Assembly (NCBI GenBank): GCA_035508555.1
Contig: DATJMU010000135.1
Coordinates: forward strand, 16,607 to 80,606
Direction: 5' to 3'
DNA length: 64,000 nt
DNA from: Terracidiphilus sp.
GTDB taxonomy: Bacteria; Acidobacteriota; Terriglobia; Terriglobales; Acidobacteriaceae
Every line of letters starts with the position of its first letter. Within the stretch, counting starts at the first letter, position 1. The notes under the pieces are model-generated. The model saw only the letters and a list, made by a program, of their open reading frames with translations. It was not told the DNA's origin and made no database searches. The position numbers were made by a program, and so were the translations under genes. This document shows, in pieces, positions 14,589-22,993 of the stretch.

Positions 14589-17330
14589 ATGAGCGAAGAA
14601 GATCCAAAGCGCCGCCGCCGCTGGCGGCTGTGGACGGTGCTGGCTGCAACCTCGATCCTGCTGGCGGCGCTCATCGTTCCGCCGATGGTGAGCATCGGCC
14701 GCTACAAGGGCCAGATCACCGAGCTCATTTCGGCCTCGCTGGGACGGCCGGTGCACCTGTCCGGCGTCAAGTTTCGTCTGCTGCCATGGCCGGGATTTGT
14801 GCTCTCGAACCTGGTAGTGGACGAGGATCCGGCTTACGGCTACGAGCCGGTGCTGCACGCTCAGACCGTCACCGCGTCATTCCGCCTGCTTCCGCTGTGG
14901 CGCGGGCGCATCGAGATCGGCCGCATCAGCGTGGACCAGGCCAGCCTGAACCTGGTGCGCATGCCGGACGGCCGCTGGAACCTCGATCCCCTCTTTCGTA
15001 CGGCCAACGCCAAGGCCGGGGCGTCTGCGGTCGCTCACGAGCGTCGCGCCGTGCCGCTGCCCTATCTGGAAGCGACCAACTCCCGCATCGACTTCAAGGA
15101 CGGGGTCGAGAAGCTGCCGTTCTCGCTGGTCAACGCCGATCTCTCCTTCTGGCAGGCGGCGCCGGGAGACTGGCACATCCGATTGCGCGGCCAGCCCGCC
15201 CGTACCGATATCAGCCTCTACCAGGAGGACACGGGAGTGGTGCGCCTGGAGGCCAGTCTGCACAGCGCGCCGGCGCTGCGCATGATGCCGCTACGCATAG
15301 ATCTGGACTGGCGCGAGGCGCAGCTTGGCCAGCTTTCGCGGCTGCTCATCGGGTCCGATCCCGGCTGGCGCGGCAATCTGACTGCGGAGTTCCACCTAAC
15401 CGGGACCGCCGACACGGCCCACGTGACCACGCGGCTGCGCGCCACCGGGGTGCATCGCGAGGAGTTCGCGCCCGCCGAGCCGCTCGACTTCGACGCCAAC
15501 TGTGGCTTTGTCTATCACTACGCGCGGCGCGCCCTGCAGAACCTGGTCTGCAGCTCGCCCCTCGGTGACGGCCATCTGCAACTGGCCGGGGACGTGCCGG
15601 GAGGAAGCGGGAAGCCGCACTTCACGCTGGCGCTTGATCAGATTCCAGTGGACGCGGCGCTGGCGTTTCTGCGCACCATTCGCAGCGGGGTCGACCCGGG
15701 CCTGAGCGCGGCCGGCACCGTCAGCGGCAAGATGACCTACACCGGCGGCGAAGCTGGAACGGCCGAGCCGGTAGCTTTGCACCACGCGCGGCGCGGGAGG
15801 CATGCGGCCGGTGCGCTGCGTGCGCCGCTCACACTGCCCCTCGAAGGCAGCTTCACGGTCTCCGGATTCCAGCTCAGCGGCGGCAGCCTCAACCAGCCCA
15901 TCCAGGCGAACCGCATCGTGCTGCAGCCCGAGCAGATTGCCTCGGGTCACGCGCTCGCTCTCGCGGCTACGGTCAGCGTTCCCGCCGGCGCACCGGCTGC
16001 GCTCAACTTTACGCCCGAGCTGACGCTGCACGGCTATCGGCTCGGCATCCACGGCGAAGTTAGCCTCGGGCGTGCGCGCGATCTGGCCCATGCCGCCGGG
16101 CTGCCCGACGTGCAGACTGTCGATGCCCTCGCCGGCGGACCGCTTTCTGTGGCGCTGAATGTGGAGGGCCCCTGGCTCCCGCGCGATCATGAGCTTGGCG
16201 GAAAACTGCCTGAAGCGAACGCCGGCGCCGCGGGCAGCCAGGACTCTCCGGCAGAGCCTGATCCCGATGCTCCCTTGCTTGGCGGCGACCGCCTCAGCGG
16301 CGCCGTTACCATCCGCGATGCAAGCTGGAAGGCCGATTACCTGGCCCATCCCATCACCATTGCGCAAGCGACGCTGCACCTCGCTGGCGGGGCGGCGAGT
16401 TGGGATCCGGTGGACTTCACATACGGGGCGCTGAAGGGCACGGCCAGCCTCACACTGCCCGGCGACTGCCCGGCGCAGCCTTCGGGACAGCCGTGTGCGG
16501 CGCAGTTTGCCGTGCAGTTGGGCAAGCTGGAGGCGACAGAGCTGCAAAATGCCCTGCTGGGCGCCCGGGAGCCCAACTCGCTCTTCGCGGAGCTGATCGA
16601 TCGTCTGCATCTTTCGTCGGCGCCGGCCTGGCCTCCGCTCGAGGGTGCGGTCCGGGCCGAAGCGCTGGCCGTGGGGCCGGTCACGCTCACCGATCCGGTG
16701 GCAGAGCTGCGCATTGATGCGGCCGGCGCGCACATTGAAAGCCTGGACGCCGGCGTTCTGGGCGGGCGTGTGCACGCTACCGGCACACTTCTAAAGCCGG
16801 CTACCGACCAGGGCAAACCCGCTTACAGGCTCGATGCCAGGCTGAGCGGTCTAAGTGCGCCGGCCGTCGGCCGGCTGCTGGAGATGCGCTGGACCGGCGG
16901 CCCATTCAATGCTGAAGGCAAGATCGAGCTCACGGGGCTTACGTCACACGGCCTGGCTGCTTCAGCCGCGGGAAGCTTCTCTTTTGACTGGAGGCGGGGC
17001 GGAATCTCCGCGGTTCTGCCCGAGCCGCTCGATGCCCCTGAGCCGCCCAAGGCGAAGACCGGGGCCAAGACGAATGCGCGGCCCGTCACGACTCCAGCCG
17101 AGCCCAGGGCCCAGCCTCTTCCCAAGCCACTCAGTCGCTTTGCGAGCTTTGCGGGCGACGGCGAGATCGCGAACGGAAAGATCGTCCTGCGCCACGCGGA
17201 GGCCGTTCAGGCTGGGCGCCGCCACGCGATCGACGCCGAGGTCACGCTCGCCTTGCCGCCCAGAGTCTCCTTTGCCACGCCCAGGGACGCGTCCGAATCG
17301 CGTCGCCGAAACGCCCGCCCGGTACAATGA
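14589..17330 (+). CDS. AsmA family protein
   Basis: N-terminal TM, ISASLGRPVHL and WNLDPL AsmA-like N-terminus, long beta-rich body. Confidence 0.8.
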   Translation: MSEEDPKRRRRWRLWTVLAATSILLAALIVPPMVSIGRYKGQITELISASLGRPVHLSGVKFRLLPWPGFVLSNLVVDEDPAYGYEPVLHAQTVTASFRLLPLWRGRIEIGRISVDQASLNLVRMPDGRWNLDPLFRTANAKAGASAVAHERRAVPLPYLEATNSRIDFKDGVEKLPFSLVNADLSFWQAAPGDWHIRLRGQPARTDISLYQEDTGVVRLEASLHSAPALRMMPLRIDLDWREAQLGQLSRLLIGSDPGWRGNLTAEFHLTGTADTAHVTTRLRATGVHREEFAPAEPLDFDANCGFVYHYARRALQNLVCSSPLGDGHLQLAGDVPGGSGKPHFTLALDQIPVDAALAFLRTIRSGVDPGLSAAGTVSGKMTYTGGEAGTAEPVALHHARRGRHAAGALRAPLTLPLEGSFTVSGFQLSGGSLNQPIQANRIVLQPEQIASGHALALAATVSVPAGAPAALNFTPELTLHGYRLGIHGEVSLGRARDLAHAAGLPDVQTVDALAGGPLSVALNVEGPWLPRDHELGGKLPEANAGAAGSQDSPAEPDPDAPLLGGDRLSGAVTIRDASWKADYLAHPITIAQATLHLAGGAASWDPVDFTYGALKGTASLTLPGDCPAQPSGQPCAAQFAVQLGKLEATELQNALLGAREPNSLFAELIDRLHLSSAPAWPPLEGAVRAEALAVGPVTLTDPVAELRIDAAGAHIESLDAGVLGGRVHATGTLLKPATDQGKPAYRLDARLSGLSAPAVGRLLEMRWTGGPFNAEGKIELTGLTSHGLAASAAGSFSFDWRRGGISAVLPEPLDAPEPPKAKTGAKTNARPVTTPAEPRAQPLPKPLSRFASFAGDGEIANGKIVLRHAEAVQAGRRHAIDAEVTLALPPRVSFATPRDASESRRRNARPVQ

Positions 17331-17334
17331 GTTC

Positions 17335-18018
17335 ATGGGTTCACAGGTAGCTTCTTCCCCCGTTTCCGTCCGCTGCCAGGGCATCCTCTTCGACATGGAC
17401 GGCATCCTGATCTCGTCCATCGGCTCGGTGGAGCGCAGCTGGGCCACATGGGCGGCGATGCGCGGCATCGACAACGAGCGCACGCAGCAGATCGCCCACG
17501 GCCGCCGCGCAGTGGACACGCTCGCCGCGCTGTGCCCCGAACTCGACGTGGAAACCGAACTCCGGATCCTCGAAGACCTGGAGATCTCCGACAATGACGG
17601 CCTGAGCGTGCTGCCCGGCGTGGCTGCGCTGCTGGCGGCCCTGCCGCCCGACCGCTGGACGGTGGTGACCAGCGCCACAGAGCGGCTGGCGCGAGCGCGC
17701 CTGATCGCCAGCGGCATTCCCACGCCGGAGCGGCTGGTCACAGCCGGGCACGTCACCCACGGCAAGCCCCATCCCGAGCCGTTCCTGGCCGGCGCGGCGT
17801 TGCTCGGCTTTGCTCCGCAGGCGTGCGTGGTCTTCGAGGACTCGTCCTCAGGCGCCGCCGCCGGCCGCGCCGCCGGCTGCACGGTAGTAGCGACTACGTT
17901 CTCGCATCCGGTGGAATCGCTCGATGCCGCGCATTATCTTGTCACCGATCTTGCCGGCGTGAGCGTGCGCAAAGACGCTGAGGGCCTGGTGCTGAGCCTT
18001 ACGCCGCTGACGGAGTAG
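17335..18018 (+). CDS. HAD superfamily phosphatase (YfbT/sugar-phosphatase-like)
   Basis: FDMDG, VTS, GKPHPEP, VFEDS. Confidence 0.9.
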   Translation: MGSQVASSPVSVRCQGILFDMDGILISSIGSVERSWATWAAMRGIDNERTQQIAHGRRAVDTLAALCPELDVETELRILEDLEISDNDGLSVLPGVAALLAALPPDRWTVVTSATERLARARLIASGIPTPERLVTAGHVTHGKPHPEPFLAGAALLGFAPQACVVFEDSSSGAAAGRAAGCTVVATTFSHPVESLDAAHYLVTDLAGVSVRKDAEGLVLSLTPLTE

Positions 18019-18111: not shown

Positions 18112-18858
18112 CTACTCGCTGGCCTCAATCCGCCGCCCGTGCAGATCCTCGAGCGGCCGGGTATTCATCTTGAAAAGACTGGTGAATGCCCGTATCTGTT
18201 CGCGGCTGACGGTCAGCGGCGTCTCGAAGACGTACCACGCCACGTCTTCGGTGCAGGGCGGCACCAGCAGCGAGCCGGTGTAGGTCCAGTAGCCGGTGTC
18301 CTGCGGGAAGAGACCACCGGGATCGATCATGTCGGTGATGCGCTCCGTAGCCCCGGCCTTGGTGGGCAGGTGTTCCCACAGTGCGGCGACGGTGGCGTTG
18401 GGGTAGCCCATGGCCACGTTGAAGAGCACCGCGAACTGCGCCATTTTGCCACCGGCCGAATGCGCCAGGAAATCCACTTCCATGTCGGCCAGCTGGCCGT
18501 GGATCGCGTGCTCGCTGGGATGGTGGAAGGTGAAATCGATCAGGTTATAGCGCACGCCGCCGACCTCGATCGAACTTCCAGGGTCCATGCGCACCGTGAT
18601 CCCGCGGCCATCGTTCACTACGGTGACCTCGCCTGCGACGAAGTGAAAGCGGATGGGGGCGAGACCGGTGTCGAGGTGGGCTCCGCGCAGATCCACCGGC
18701 GACTGCTGATGGCCGTGCCCGCAGGCATGGTAAGCCGGGTCCAGGTGGTCCCACACCAGCGGCCCCGTCTTGCCCTGATAGGACCAGGGCAATGAGTCCT
18801 GAGCAGTGGCGACGGTGGCAGACACGAGAAGAATGGCGGCAATCGCAGGAATGTGCAT
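18112..18858 (-). CDS. Secreted alpha-carbonic anhydrase homologue with degenerate active site
   Basis: Signal peptide; WSY, CGHGHQQSPVDL, PSEH, YTGSLLVPPCTEDVAW. The zinc triad and Thr199 equivalents are altered. Confidence 0.85.
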   Translation of the reverse strand: MHIPAIAAILLVSATVATAQDSLPWSYQGKTGPLVWDHLDPAYHACGHGHQQSPVDLRGAHLDTGLAPIRFHFVAGEVTVVNDGRGITVRMDPGSSIEVGGVRYNLIDFTFHHPSEHAIHGQLADMEVDFLAHSAGGKMAQFAVLFNVAMGYPNATVAALWEHLPTKAGATERITDMIDPGGLFPQDTGYWTYTGSLLVPPCTEDVAWYVFETPLTVSREQIRAFTSLFKMNTRPLEDLHGRRIEASE

Positions 18859-18940
18859 GGAGATCTCCCCTATAAGACGCGCGGGCGCCAGAAAGGATTT
18901 TAAGCGACGGGGCGGACCAACCCGAAGGCTGGGCAGTGGA

Positions 18941-21202
18941 TCAATTTGAATTCGCCCGCGAATCCCCGCGCGCCGACTGCACGTCCACGGTGCGGTTGCC
19001 CTCGTACTCCATGATGTGGTGATAGGCCTCCCAGTCGTTCCACAGGATCGGCGCGGGGAGGGTTGCCAGAGGATCTTTGAGATAGTCCGCGTAGTCCTCG
19101 ACGTACAGGCTGGTGCGATGCACGCCCGTGAGCCAGTCGCCGCGGTACCAGTTCTTCCACTTGCCGTACTCCGCGTCGGCCATGTACTTCTGCATGGTCT
19201 CGATCGCCTGCTGGGCCTGGGTCACTTCCGCTTCAGCCTGTTGCGCGTGTCCCGCGGCATCGTCCTGCATGGCATGGGCGATGGCGAGCAACATGCGATT
19301 GCCCTCGCGGTTGAGGGCGGTCATGGTCAGCATCTCGGCCTCGTAGTAGTCGCGCCGCGCGGGGTCCACCAGCTTTTCGGCGGCCAGCGCGTCGTTCCAC
19401 ACGCGATCCCAGCGCGGCTGGGCGGCCTCGCACTCGTCGACGTCCTGCTTGATCCGGGCCTCAAGCGCGGGGCCAGCCACCTGAGGCAGAACGTAGGGCC
19501 GCGACCACTTGGGCGACTGTCCCAGCATCAGTTCCACCTGATTGCCGGAGAGATGGTTGAGGATCAGCCAGTTGGTTTCGGTGAAGTAGTGCTGCTCGCC
19601 ATACTCGCGCGGCACGTTGCTGGCCTTCGTTTTCTGGAACTGATCCACGCCTCCGCGCGGGATGGGCGCGGCGAAGTATTCCTTGTAGGCGCTCTCGAGC
19701 GCATCGGCACTCCTGGCGCCGAACTCTTCGGCAGCCCACTTGCGGTAGTAGGCGCTGTCGGTATCGCCGGCGGCTCCTGACTCGCTGCCGCGGGAGGCCG
19801 GCACGCCGCCCCAGGCCGTCTCCATCGCGGCACGTGCGGTCATGGCCACGGGGCGAATGTCGCTGGTGTTGAGCAGGAAGAAGCCGGTGGCGCCGGCCTT
19901 GATGTAGCGTTCCATCTGTTCCTGGATCACCGAGACGGGCACCATCTCCGAAAGCTGGTTGGCCTGGCCGTTCTCCATGGCCACGTGGAAGTACATGCCT
20001 TCGCCCGGCTCGAGGTCGCCGCCGTCCTGCATGTCGCCGTAGCCGGTGTCGGCCCACACTTGCGTCACTTCAGGCGGAATCTTCAGGTAGCCCTCGCGCT
20101 TGAGCCGGTCGCCCTCCTGCCAGAGGTTGGCGATGAAGTGCGCATCGGGAAAGCGCGCGCGCACGATCTTGATCTGGTCGGCGATGGCGGTGCTGATGCG
20201 CTCGCCCAGCAGCGGATCGTTGTTGCGGACGCTGGGGTCGAGATCGGCGTAGGTCTGATCGGAAAGCCCGCGCAGGCCCACGCTCCAGAGAATGTCGTCG
20301 TCGGGCTTATACTCGGCCACCGCATCTTTCCAGGCGCGCTCCAGGATCTCAGGGTGCGTGGAGAAGTTGTAGGGCACATCTTGGGGCCAGCGGGCCGCGT
20401 TCACGCCCAGCGGGGTGGCGTGGTGCTGGTTGACCAGCAGCCCGCGCTTCGAGGCCGCTTCCACCTGCGCATCGTCGGGAAAGATCCAGGTGCCGGGCAC
20501 GATCATGTTGCCCTTCAGCCGCAGGATGGTTTCGAAGATGTTGTCCCACACTTCGAGCGAGATGCCGGTGTGCGCGCCTGGGGGCGCGAGGCGCCAGCCG
20601 CTCAGCAGGTCTTCATCGTTGATAAAAAAGCCGCGATAGCGGAAGACCGGGCTCGGAAATACATGTGTAAAGTCGACCGGCAATTCGATCGAGGTGCGCT
20701 TCTCCGGCTCCTTGCCGGTCCACAGGTACATCGGGTCGACGCCGAGCACCGATTGCGAAAACTGGTAGATGGCGTAGATGGTTCCGCGCATATCAGCGCC
20801 GGTCAGGCACACCACATGTTGCTTCACCGCGCCCCCTGGCTCCTCGACCACAAAGGTCGAAAAAGCGAAGGCCTCGGTGTTGTCCGTGGTTTTGCACGGA
20901 GCCCCGCCGGGCAACTGGCCGCGGCCGGCGATCAGCAGGGCGACGGGCCCTGCGTCCTCAAGCTTGTTCACGAGCTTCGGTCGCTGGCTAAACACCTTGC
21001 TGAAGTCGTTGAGCAGGTCCTGGGTGGCGCGCTGCACGGCTGCCGGCTCTTCGGGGCTCTCGACTACCGTGACCGTGGGGACAATTGCAACGGTCCTAGG
21101 CTCGACCTTGATCGAAGCGCTTGCGGGCACCGCCCATCCTGGCAGCGCCGCGACGGCAAAAAGAAGCACAAAGAACAGAAAACGGCGATGTTGGGCAGGC
21201 AT
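18941..21202 (-). CDS. Secreted GH115-like glycoside hydrolase
   Basis: Signal peptide; DMRGTIYAIY, PVFRYRGFFINDE, ETILRLKGN, GMYFH. Confidence 0.78.
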   Translation of the reverse strand: MPAQHRRFLFFVLLFAVAALPGWAVPASASIKVEPRTVAIVPTVTVVESPEEPAAVQRATQDLLNDFSKVFSQRPKLVNKLEDAGPVALLIAGRGQLPGGAPCKTTDNTEAFAFSTFVVEEPGGAVKQHVVCLTGADMRGTIYAIYQFSQSVLGVDPMYLWTGKEPEKRTSIELPVDFTHVFPSPVFRYRGFFINDEDLLSGWRLAPPGAHTGISLEVWDNIFETILRLKGNMIVPGTWIFPDDAQVEAASKRGLLVNQHHATPLGVNAARWPQDVPYNFSTHPEILERAWKDAVAEYKPDDDILWSVGLRGLSDQTYADLDPSVRNNDPLLGERISTAIADQIKIVRARFPDAHFIANLWQEGDRLKREGYLKIPPEVTQVWADTGYGDMQDGGDLEPGEGMYFHVAMENGQANQLSEMVPVSVIQEQMERYIKAGATGFFLLNTSDIRPVAMTARAAMETAWGGVPASRGSESGAAGDTDSAYYRKWAAEEFGARSADALESAYKEYFAAPIPRGGVDQFQKTKASNVPREYGEQHYFTETNWLILNHLSGNQVELMLGQSPKWSRPYVLPQVAGPALEARIKQDVDECEAAQPRWDRVWNDALAAEKLVDPARRDYYEAEMLTMTALNREGNRMLLAIAHAMQDDAAGHAQQAEAEVTQAQQAIETMQKYMADAEYGKWKNWYRGDWLTGVHRTSLYVEDYADYLKDPLATLPAPILWNDWEAYHHIMEYEGNRTVDVQSARGDSRANSN

Positions 21203-21467
21203 AGGCTCTCCTCGTGTGGGGGTGCGCGTTGAGCGCGTTTGTGGGCGCGGTGAATTATAAATGCCATCCCTGCCACTGTCTCACCGCTGCCCAGGTGCCG
21301 GTCCGGGCGGCAAATTTGCGCACGCAGTGCAGGAAATCACTAACGATCATACCCCCGAATTTTGATCAGCTTTGTGAAGATTGTCAGCGGAAATCATGCA
21401 GATATTTCAAGAAAGGGTGTTCAAATCCCTTGAGCCCCTCGCGGTTCCATGTACAATCAAGGGCGGT

Positions 21468-22253
21468 ATGGCGGAACGGCTGAATCCCCGCTCGGAACGG
21501 ATCATCAAGTTTCTTTTGCGCGTCGGGACGGCGAGCATCGACGAGATCGTCGGCGAAGCCGGCTCGTCGGCCCCCAGCATCCGCCGCGACCTGGCCCGCC
21601 TCGAGACCCGGGGGCTGATTAAGCGTACTCACGGCGGCGCTACCCTCGTCGAGCCCCTGCTCTACGAGCCTTTTCGCTATGACAGCTCGTTCCTGGCGCG
21701 GGAGCAGCGGTACGCCGTCGAGAAGCGCCGCATCGGCGCCGCGGCGGCTGAGCTGGTGATGGCCAACGAGACGGTCGGCCTCACCGCCGGCACCACCACC
21801 ACCCACATCGGCCGCAGCCTCCGCCACCGTGACAAGATCCAGGTGATCACTAACGCGATCAACATCGGCATGGAGCTCTGCAACCAGCCTGGCATCCGCA
21901 CCTACCTCACCGGCGGGGTGGTTCCGTGGGCGTGGTCGTTCTCGCTTACGGGCAACCCGGCGCTCGAGTTCCTCGACGACGTCTACATGGACAAAGTCTT
22001 CCTGAGCGTCACGGGGTTCGACGCCGAGCGCGGCGCCACCACGCTTGAGACCGACGAGGCTCTCGTCTACCGCAAGATGCTCAAGCAGTCCAAGCAGGTG
22101 ATTGTGGTGGCCGACGCCAGCAAGCTGGGCAAGGTGAGCCCGGCCTTCATCTGTCCCGCCAGCGAGATTCACGTGCTCATCACCGACATCGGCGCAAGCG
22201 ACGAGGCTCTGGCGGCCTTCGATCGGCAGGGCATGAAGATCGTCCGGGCCTGA
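21468..22253 (+). CDS. DeoR/GlpR family transcriptional regulator
   Basis: SIRRDLARLE...RTHGGA HTH, then TAGTTT, VITNAINI and ADASKLG sensor motifs. Confidence 0.92.
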   Translation: MAERLNPRSERIIKFLLRVGTASIDEIVGEAGSSAPSIRRDLARLETRGLIKRTHGGATLVEPLLYEPFRYDSSFLAREQRYAVEKRRIGAAAAELVMANETVGLTAGTTTTHIGRSLRHRDKIQVITNAINIGMELCNQPGIRTYLTGGVVPWAWSFSLTGNPALEFLDDVYMDKVFLSVTGFDAERGATTLETDEALVYRKMLKQSKQVIVVADASKLGKVSPAFICPASEIHVLITDIGASDEALAAFDRQGMKIVRA

Positions 22254-22282: not shown

Positions 22283-22993
22283 TCAGGCCGTGAAAGCCAC
22301 TGGATCGCTCCAGACCTCGTGAAACAGCCGGATCGCGGTGCGCAGATCGTCTTCGAGCGTGGCCGGGTCGGCCCCGTTCCAAGCCAGAGAGCTGTGCAGA
22401 GAAGCGACGCCGGAGCGGCGCGCCACCTCGGCGAGGTTGCCGAGCCGCAGCCCGCCGCCGGCCATGATCTCGATTCTTTCCGCGGCCTGCTGGCGGATGC
22501 GGCCGATGGTATCCGCGCCGGCGAGCACGTCAGGTTTGCCGCCGGAGGTCAGCAGACAGTTTGCGCCCGTGGCAATCACGTCTTCGAGTGCCGCAAGTAG
22601 ATCCGGGGTCTGGTCGAAGGCGCGATGAAAGGTGACGCGCATGGGGCGTGCCAGCTCGACCAGCTCGCGGGTCCGAGCCACATCCACGCGGCTGTCCGGC
22701 AGCAGCAAGCCCAGCACGACCGAGGCCGCACCCGCGCGCTTGGCCGCGCCGATCTGGCTGCGCATCCGATCCAGCTCTTCAGGGGAGAAGACGAAGCCGC
22801 CGTAGCGCGGCCGGATGAGGACCGAGACAGGGATGGAGACGGCGTTCACGGCGGCCCGCATCAGATCCGGGCACGGAGTCAGGCCTCCATCGTCCAGGGT
22901 GCCGCAGAGCTCCACACGGTGGGCGCCTCCGGCCTCAGCCGCGCGGGCCGCCGCGACGTTCTCAATGCACAACTCAAAGCACAGCGTATTCAT
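22283..22993 (-). CDS. cutC: CutC family (copper-homeostasis-type TIM barrel) protein
   Basis: RVELC, GGLTP, LIRPRYGGF, TFHRAFD, LTSGG. Confidence 0.9.
   Translation of the reverse strand: MNTLCFELCIENVAAARAAEAGGAHRVELCGTLDDGGLTPCPDLMRAAVNAVSIPVSVLIRPRYGGFVFSPEELDRMRSQIGAAKRAGAASVVLGLLLPDSRVDVARTRELVELARPMRVTFHRAFDQTPDLLAALEDVIATGANCLLTSGGKPDVLAGADTIGRIRQQAAERIEIMAGGGLRLGNLAEVARRSGVASLHSSLAWNGADPATLEDDLRTAIRLFHEVWSDPVAFTA

Follow-up and report, generated by a model that had tools for sequence, protein, structure and literature searches.

The mechanism of human carbonic anhydrase (CA) II needs zinc bound by His94, His96 and His119, the Thr199-Glu106 pair, which orients the zinc hydroxide, as well as a proton shuttle. 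Zinc is held orders of magnitude more weakly when a ligand of CA II is substituted, and substitutions of Thr199 reduce turnover about 100-fold; some active CAs lack His64, the shuttle residue. Animals provide the textbook examples of CA-related pseudoenzymes, and the replacements of the zinc histidines in CARP-type proteins are mostly Arg or Gln. CARP VIII, X and XI are acatalytic owing to missing zinc histidines (PMC2873310), a CARP is also known from Toxoplasma (PMC5437132), and selection keeps such CA-like pseudoenzymes for roles other than CA activity (PMC2873310, PMC5437132). In the full-text literature searched, neither bacterial alpha-CA pseudoenzymes nor the acidobacterial subfamily treated here were found to be described, and bacterial alpha-CA pseudoenzymes are unmentioned in a review of bacterial CAs; databases label the bacterial ones reported here 'carbonic anhydrase'.

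The window, i.e. the whole analysed stretch of 64,000 nucleotides from Terracidiphilus sp., carries a gene for an exported protein with the alpha-CA fold (positions 18112..18858, minus strand), in which T110-H112-D129 stand for H94-H96-H119. We read its product, with a probability of about 0.6 and from sequence comparison, as a pseudoenzyme, that is, a former canonical alpha-CA that would now serve a cavity-based role other than CO2 hydration, involving a small ligand or a different, weaker metal.

Gene, predicted fold and active-site residues

The open reading frame starts with ATG and specifies 248 amino acids without a frameshift or internal stop, and its GC3 (0.815) is in line with that of its neighbours. 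A Shine-Dalgarno-like GGGGAG, read from the sequence, lies 6 nt 5' of the ATG (18865..18870, minus strand); a promoter and terminator scan around the gene found no features. The N-terminus, MHIPAIAAILLVSATVATA followed by QD, reads as a putative Sec signal peptide (MHIPAIAAILLVSATVATAQ, residues 1-20, 18799..18858, minus strand) with an A-x-A type cleavage motif between ATA and QD, and the leaders of the homologues are all alike (M-R-x-hydrophobic-AAAQ). The cysteines C46 (codon 18721..18723, minus strand) and C202 correspond to the disulfide pair of bacterial alpha-CAs and do not vary among 103 homologues. The protein thus has the architecture of bacterial periplasmic alpha-CAs, a signal peptide plus a conserved intramolecular disulfide (Cys23-Cys203).

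The protein matched PF00194, the eukaryotic-type, i.e. alpha, carbonic anhydrase family of Pfam, with 107 bits (E = 1.3e-30, cut-off 27) over profile positions 6-253 of 254, and generated no match among the NCBIfam models. As many as 240 PDB alpha-CA sequences matched it at E <= 1e-3, the top one in HMMER being the Thermovibrio ammonificans CA 4c3t (E = 3.7e-44). An AlphaFold2 model computed from a 103-sequence alignment reached a pLDDT of 86.6 and a pTM of 0.82 and was poor solely in the leader, where pLDDT is low and an N-terminal helix spans residues 4-17. The best Foldseek matches of the model were bacterial alpha-CAs (target-normalised TM 0.89-0.93, rmsd 1.8-2.0 A), with a TM of 0.92 and an rmsd of 1.9 A to 6im0/6eki. 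By its profile match and by the ten-stranded twisted beta-sheet of the predicted structure, the protein is a member of the alpha-CA superfamily, and its alpha-CA fold is shown by the model.

Residues are numbered here after human CA II, from a MAFFT alignment that includes a CA II sequence used for numbering only. HMMER paired 'ynlidftfhhpseh...mevdflah...gsllvppc' of the window protein with 'fylkqfhfhapseh...feahfvhl...gslttppc' of 4c3t, and the two programs agree on the numbering of the active site. One of the three zinc histidines is left: the triad reads H94T (T110), H96 kept (H112) and H119D (D129). The corresponding codons, all on the minus strand, are those of T110-F111-H112 (= H94-F95-H96) at 18523..18531, in which the first ligand has become Thr and the second is kept, and of E127-V128-D129 (= E117-x-H119) at 18472..18480, in which the third ligand has become Asp and the second-shell Glu, E117 (E127), is kept. 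The motif GSLLVPPC (residues 195-202, 18253..18276, minus strand) contains L197 (= L198, also kept), the gatekeeper change T199L (L198), the neighbouring change T200V (V199) and the disulfide cysteine C202. Glu106 of the gatekeeper pair is retained as E116 and its Thr199 partner is gone. At the proton-shuttle position the alignment places H64R (R85, codon 18604..18606, minus strand), and further changes are Q92D (D108), V121L and V143Q. The minus-strand codons of T110 (18529-18531), H112 (18523-18525), D129 (18472-18474), L198 (18265-18267) and R85 (18604-18606) were checked on the DNA.

A misalignment that hides histidines was considered and rejected, as HMMER, MAFFT and the structural matches place identical residues. 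Of the additional histidines, His113 (position 97) also occurs in canonical members, and His133 only in the window protein. The first-pass annotation had called Q92D, H94T, H96 kept, H119D, T199L, T200V and H64R and had described the signal peptide, the disulfide cysteines and the scaffold as intact with no frameshift; HMMER and MAFFT return the same residues, and the intact reading frame, the leader and the invariant C46 and C202 agree with that description. It had also named an alignment and a structure prediction as checks: none of HMMER, MAFFT and the structural matches places the zinc histidines elsewhere, and the model keeps the alpha-CA fold (TM 0.92 to bacterial alpha-CAs).

The features of a catalytically competent alpha-CA (EC 4.2.1.1), namely the three zinc histidines, the Thr199-Glu106 pair and His64, are therefore all absent or incomplete. 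From the mechanism and mutagenesis of CA II, classical zinc-dependent CO2 hydration by the window protein is very unlikely, because two ligands are changed, one of them to Thr, and the protein has Leu for Thr199 and Arg for His64. H64R counts as supporting evidence only, since His64 varies among active CAs.

Relatives, locus and variety of metal triads

A sequence search of 5.8 billion proteins gave 740 relatives at E <= 1e-10, and a profile search gave 1678 at E <= 1e-40. Those with a named source are from Terracidiphilus MAGs, and their database label is 'carbonic anhydrase'. The nearest relatives (P0002-P0004, 69-70% identity) also carry T94/H96/D119/L121/L198 and L/V199, and the nearest canonical ones (P0005 and P0006) are 63% identical in BLASTP and 64-65% in the multiple alignment, with a dS of about 1.3. 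The residue changes are therefore not recent decay, since they are shared by the 69-70% relatives and the canonical relatives stand at 63-65% with that dS; the observation that the first-pass annotation had named as one that would count against it, canonical residues in close relatives, did not turn up.

The residues at 94/96/119 (the triad) were counted in the first alignment of 215 sequences. H-H-H was found in 66, E-H-D in 58, T-H-D in 31, D-H-D in 21 and D-H-H in 11, and the rarer triads include H-H-D, S-H-D, S-H-Q, Q-R-D, A-H-D and others. Across the samples of the subfamily examined, only between about a quarter and a third of the sequences have the canonical triad. Among 50%-identity representatives, a search dominated by giant tandem-CA proteins that collapsed the query clade and was used only for triad frequency, 80 of 100 single-domain proteins were H-H-H/T199 and 0 of 100 were T-H-D. 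The best-scoring of these representatives (P0121-P0159) are giants that reach 3007 aa and contain as many as 13 alpha-CA domains in tandem; roughly one domain in three has a non-canonical triad (e.g. E-H-Q, R-H-Q and L-H-Q).

Trees were built with the trait columns masked, by FastTree on 215 sequences and by a quick IQ-TREE run on 88. The subfamily splits with 99% support from ordinary Acidobacteriaceae alpha-CAs, all of which are H-H-H and all but one L-T-T. Its paraphyletic backbone and basal branches consist of canonical H-H-H proteins, and single-ligand-type variants (D-H-H, H-H-D and S-H-Q) are scattered near its base. The derived clades are [E/D]-H-D with E198 and R64 (the acid class; 76 sequences, 96% support), T-H-D with L198-P199 (28 sequences, 94% support), the query clade of T-H-D with L198-L199 (the window protein and P0002-4; 97-99% support), and Q-R-D with L-T-W (3 sequences). 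The metal site has been remodelled repeatedly, with 42 changes of the triad on the 215-sequence tree, and the well-supported branches alone would require at least three to five independent departures from H-H-H. An AU test (p = 0.39) neither excluded nor established that the query group arose together with the larger T-H-D/L-P clade. The number and order of the active-site changes are uncertain because the backbone of the subfamily tree is poorly resolved, with many forks below 80%.

The acid class is the largest derived class, with examples in P0007 (L035 6001-6747) and P0045 (L036 6001-6747). In 106 of its sequences, E/D94, H96, D119 and E117 are each conserved at 100% and H107 at 99%, followed by T200 (98%), L/V199 (96%), G65 (87%), R64 (86%) and E198 (82%). 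Its cavity of one His and two to three carboxylates looks, by residue composition, like a hard-metal site, and the class may be more interesting than the T-H-D class of the query. Second-shell E117 (100%) and H107 (96-99%) are conserved in both derived classes; canonical subfamily members are poorer in them, the opposite of expectation, with E 41%, D 29% and V 25% at position 117 and E 55% and H 35% at position 107.

An alpha-CA homologue was present in 38 of 251 genomes of the family, and a gene of the subfamily (>= 46% identity to the query) in ten genomes, with a single match in each. The genome of the window contains one PF00194 match and three beta-CA matches; the latter could cover cytoplasmic CO2 hydration, and there is no back-up alpha-CA. 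In the relatives the shared locus contains a MacB/FtsX gene, an HTH gene and the S-adenosylmethionine synthetase gene (MetK) on one side of the CA gene, and a convergent HAD hydrolase gene, AsmA, two S26 signal peptidase genes and RNase III on the other. This neighbourhood is common to canonical (P0106), acid-class (P0045 and P0007) and T-H-D (P0004 and P0025) members. Among 94 loci, with counts limited by contig extent, MetK was adjacent in 13 of 29 canonical, 26 of 38 acid-class and 4 of 5 T-H-D loci, and HAD in 16 of 29 canonical and 19 of 38 acid-class loci. From the shared MetK-CA-HAD-AsmA neighbourhood it follows that the subfamily proteins are not paralogues but orthologues by position whose active sites differ.

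At the window locus, the HAD-family hydrolase gene (17338..18018, plus strand), convergent and downstream, and the AsmA-family gene (14589..17330, plus strand) are in place; both are conserved synteny markers, and the HAD gene is not taken as a functional partner. Upstream, a GH115 glycoside hydrolase gene (18941..21202, minus strand) and a DeoR regulator gene replace MetK. The GH115 gene, 82 bp upstream and on the same strand, and the DeoR gene are specific to this genome, and the relatives have MetK there. The secreted GH115 protein (an alpha-glucuronidase family) and the divergent DeoR regulator together occupy 18941-22253 of the window at the MetK site, which suggests a local rearrangement or insertion. 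Read-through from GH115 is possible, because that gene ends 82 bp before the start of the CA-like gene on the same strand. A CutC-family (copper homeostasis) gene (22283-22993, minus strand) about 3.4 kb upstream is not conserved at the locus of the relatives and probably has nothing to do with the CA-like protein. No conserved operon partner hinting at a ligand or pathway was found at the locus among the contigs of relatives compared.

The orthologous gene of three species of one genus carries three triads, T-H-D in the window, D-H-E in G186, where the locus order is MetK-CA-HAD-AsmA, and E-H-D in G062. The three proteins (window, G186 = L004 and G062 = L005) are only 52-55% identical; their neighbours are slower, the HAD protein of G186 being 76% identical and MetK about 90% identical across the subfamily. 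Judged from these alignments, active-site turnover is unusually fast among close relatives of one genus.

Selection on the cavity and possible explanations

Selection was estimated on 93 coding sequences (the window, genome loci and 80 metagenome loci) by Nei-Gojobori dN/dS on the mature region, using pairs with dS between 0.05 and 1.5. The median dN/dS was 0.165 between canonical members and 0.184 between members of the acid class, and close T-H-D pairs of the sister clade gave 0.08-0.13. Between the window gene and its nearest DNA relative (L032), dN/dS was 0.23 (bootstrap 95% 0.16-0.36; dN 0.20, dS 0.88). Internal stops were absent from all 41 genome matches, whose reading frames are intact, and of 76 columns with a conservation of >= 93% in 263 sequences the window protein departs from only 2 (family median 1). 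Recent decay into a pseudogene was considered and is rejected by dN/dS, the intact reading frames and the class-specific conservation. Replacement of two of the three zinc histidines under purifying selection (omega 0.23) is the combination that marks a CA-related pseudoenzyme.

In the T-H-D/L-P clade, H96 and D119 are conserved at 100%, T94 at 93% (Ser 6%), H107 at 96% and M143 at 87%, and L121, A65, L198, P199 and E117 at 93-100%; the cavity rim at positions 62, 64, 67, 92 and 200 is variable. T-H-D proteins are separated from canonical ones at positions 65, 94, 119, 120, 121, 143, 185, 199 and 210, six of which (65, 94, 119, 121, 143 and 199) belong to the cavity-residue list that we compiled. 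The mean column entropy of 33 cavity positions was 0.44 both in T-H-D and in canonical proteins, against 0.81 for the remainder of the T-H-D proteins. This pattern indicates that the cavity floor of T-H-D proteins is protected by purifying selection.

The first-pass annotation had proposed a CA-related protein maintained for another function, to be checked by dN/dS. The altered residues shared with relatives, an omega well below 1, the fold and the conserved cavity support it. Because purifying selection is focused on the remodelled cavity, a cavity-based function is indicated, and our best guess is that the protein now binds a small ligand or else a different metal. Its ancestor was a canonical periplasmic alpha-CA at the fixed MetK-CA-HAD-AsmA locus of Terracidiphilus-like Acidobacteriaceae, and the window gene represents one of several lineages in which the metal site of this orthologue was rebuilt. 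The protein, presumably periplasmic or exported, retains the alpha-CA fold, the disulfide and the conical cavity. It has lost the Thr199 gatekeeper, the His64 shuttle and the Zn(His)3 centre, and purifying selection maintains it with the remodelled cavity as its most constrained part. There, a polar cluster of Thr110, His112 and Asp129, backed by Glu127-His117 and Glu116, would bind the ligand or metal, beneath a cavity wall made more hydrophobic by Leu131, Leu197, Leu198, Val199 and Trp208; His112, Asp129, Glu116 and Glu127 could hold a metal. A link to habitat is plausible, in that a zinc-hydroxide CA would be of little use in an acidic periplasm.

Other explanations can be set against this one. 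A functionless relic, in which a periplasmic CA is useless to an acidophile and its gene drifts, might be suspected from the 42 triad changes on the tree, from the three triads in three species of one genus and from the little that a zinc-hydroxide CA has to do at low pH, Terracidiphilus being acidophilic; but the reading frames are intact in all 41 genome matches without internal stops, omega is 0.08-0.23, the signal peptide, the disulfide and the 76 core columns are conserved, and every derived class has strongly conserved replacement residues of its own. This idea is largely refuted by dN/dS and conservation, and we consider it highly improbable. A non-catalytic scaffold for protein-protein contacts, with the cavity kept for folding stability as in animal CARPs and the CA-like domains of RPTPs, is the mode of the best-studied alpha-CA pseudoenzymes, CARP VIII, X and XI being acatalytic (PMC2873310). 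It is unlikely here, because the locus has no conserved partner gene, its neighbours being housekeeping synteny markers on the other strand, and because the class-specific changes cluster in the cavity and not on the surface.

The protein could also be an unconventional enzyme on the CA scaffold, either a CA or hydrolase with another metal (Mn, Fe or loosely bound Zn on His112, Asp129 and water or Thr110) or a metal-free hydrolase with a Thr/Ser-His-Asp set, and we rate these versions together as rather doubtful. The T-H-D/L-P clade conserves a hydroxyl at position 94 (Thr or Ser), holds H96 and D119 without exception and has E117 and H107 more conserved than canonical members do, its cavity is as constrained as that of true CAs, and the sister acid class carries a coherent, hard-metal-like set of E/D94, H96, D119 and E198. 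Residual or different catalysis is conceivable, because the PDB titles of 1cvc and 1cve describe engineered His2Asp variants of CA II that still bind zinc. However, just two plausible ligands are left in the window protein, Thr199 and His64, needed for efficient CA turnover, are gone, and position 200 and the rim (62, 64, 67 and 92) vary within the class. In the CA fold, moreover, the side chains of all three ligands point to a single spot, and in the CA II structure the second nitrogen of His96 normally forms a hydrogen bond with the backbone, a geometry that differs from the classical Ser-His-Asp relay. A wider proposal, which we hold as a tentative possibility, is that the Zn(His)3 centre repeatedly gave rise to new sites maintained by selection, yielding new enzymes or metal-handling proteins and not dead enzymes. 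These sites would be a hard-metal (Mn, Fe, Ca or Al) site of E/D94-H96-D119-E198 with R64 and a Thr-His-Asp set in a hydrophobic pocket, and the driver would perhaps be adaptation to acidic, zinc-poor or aluminium-rich soils. Taken together, a pseudoenzyme with a cavity-based role other than CO2 hydration is the reading that we prefer.

Comparison with known carbonic anhydrases and pseudoenzymes

The bacterial periplasmic alpha-CAs of Thermovibrio (4c3t), Persephonella (6im0) and Neisseria gonorrhoeae (1kop) belong to the same Pfam family, have the same compact fold and are 30-37% identical to the window protein over the Foldseek structural alignments. The signal peptide, Cys23-Cys203, SPV/ID, PSEH, PPC, W209, N244 and R246 are common to them and the window protein. 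They differ from it in that the window protein has one of the three zinc histidines and carries Thr199Leu, Thr200Val, His64Arg, Gln92Asp and Val143Gln.

Animal CARPs, the CA domains of RPTP gamma/zeta, the Toxoplasma CARP and dioscorin are likewise alpha-CA homologues that lack at least one zinc histidine, and dioscorin (4twl) was among both the sequence and the fold matches of the window protein. These eukaryotic pseudoenzymes form independent lineages whose genes are separate from those of active CAs. The window protein, in contrast, is orthologous by position to an active-type CA, and no other alpha-CA homologue is present in the genome; its replacements are Thr and Asp, Thr199 is also lost, and it has no known partner.

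Engineered CA II variants with a carboxylate for His at position 94 or 119 (1cvc, 1cve, 1cvh and 1ccu) were among the fold matches, and the natural D-H-H, H-H-D and [E/D]-H-D relatives resemble them. Each of these variants reportedly differs from CA II at one residue, with Thr199 and His64 left in place. In the window protein, unlike in them, two ligands are changed, one of them to a non-ligand residue, Thr, and both gatekeeper and shuttle are gone as well. The positional orthologues of close soil bacteria, with their canonical and at least four differently rebuilt sites, amount to a natural mutational series, which bears on how the zinc centre is lost or changed, on reuse of the fold and on the acidic-soil habitat as a driver; counts of CA genes in Acidobacteria genomes and in peat and soil metagenomes would overstate true CA capacity. 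As far as the compared loci tell, what is distinctive relative to the described systems is that canonical and several rebuilt sites alternate at one orthologous locus.
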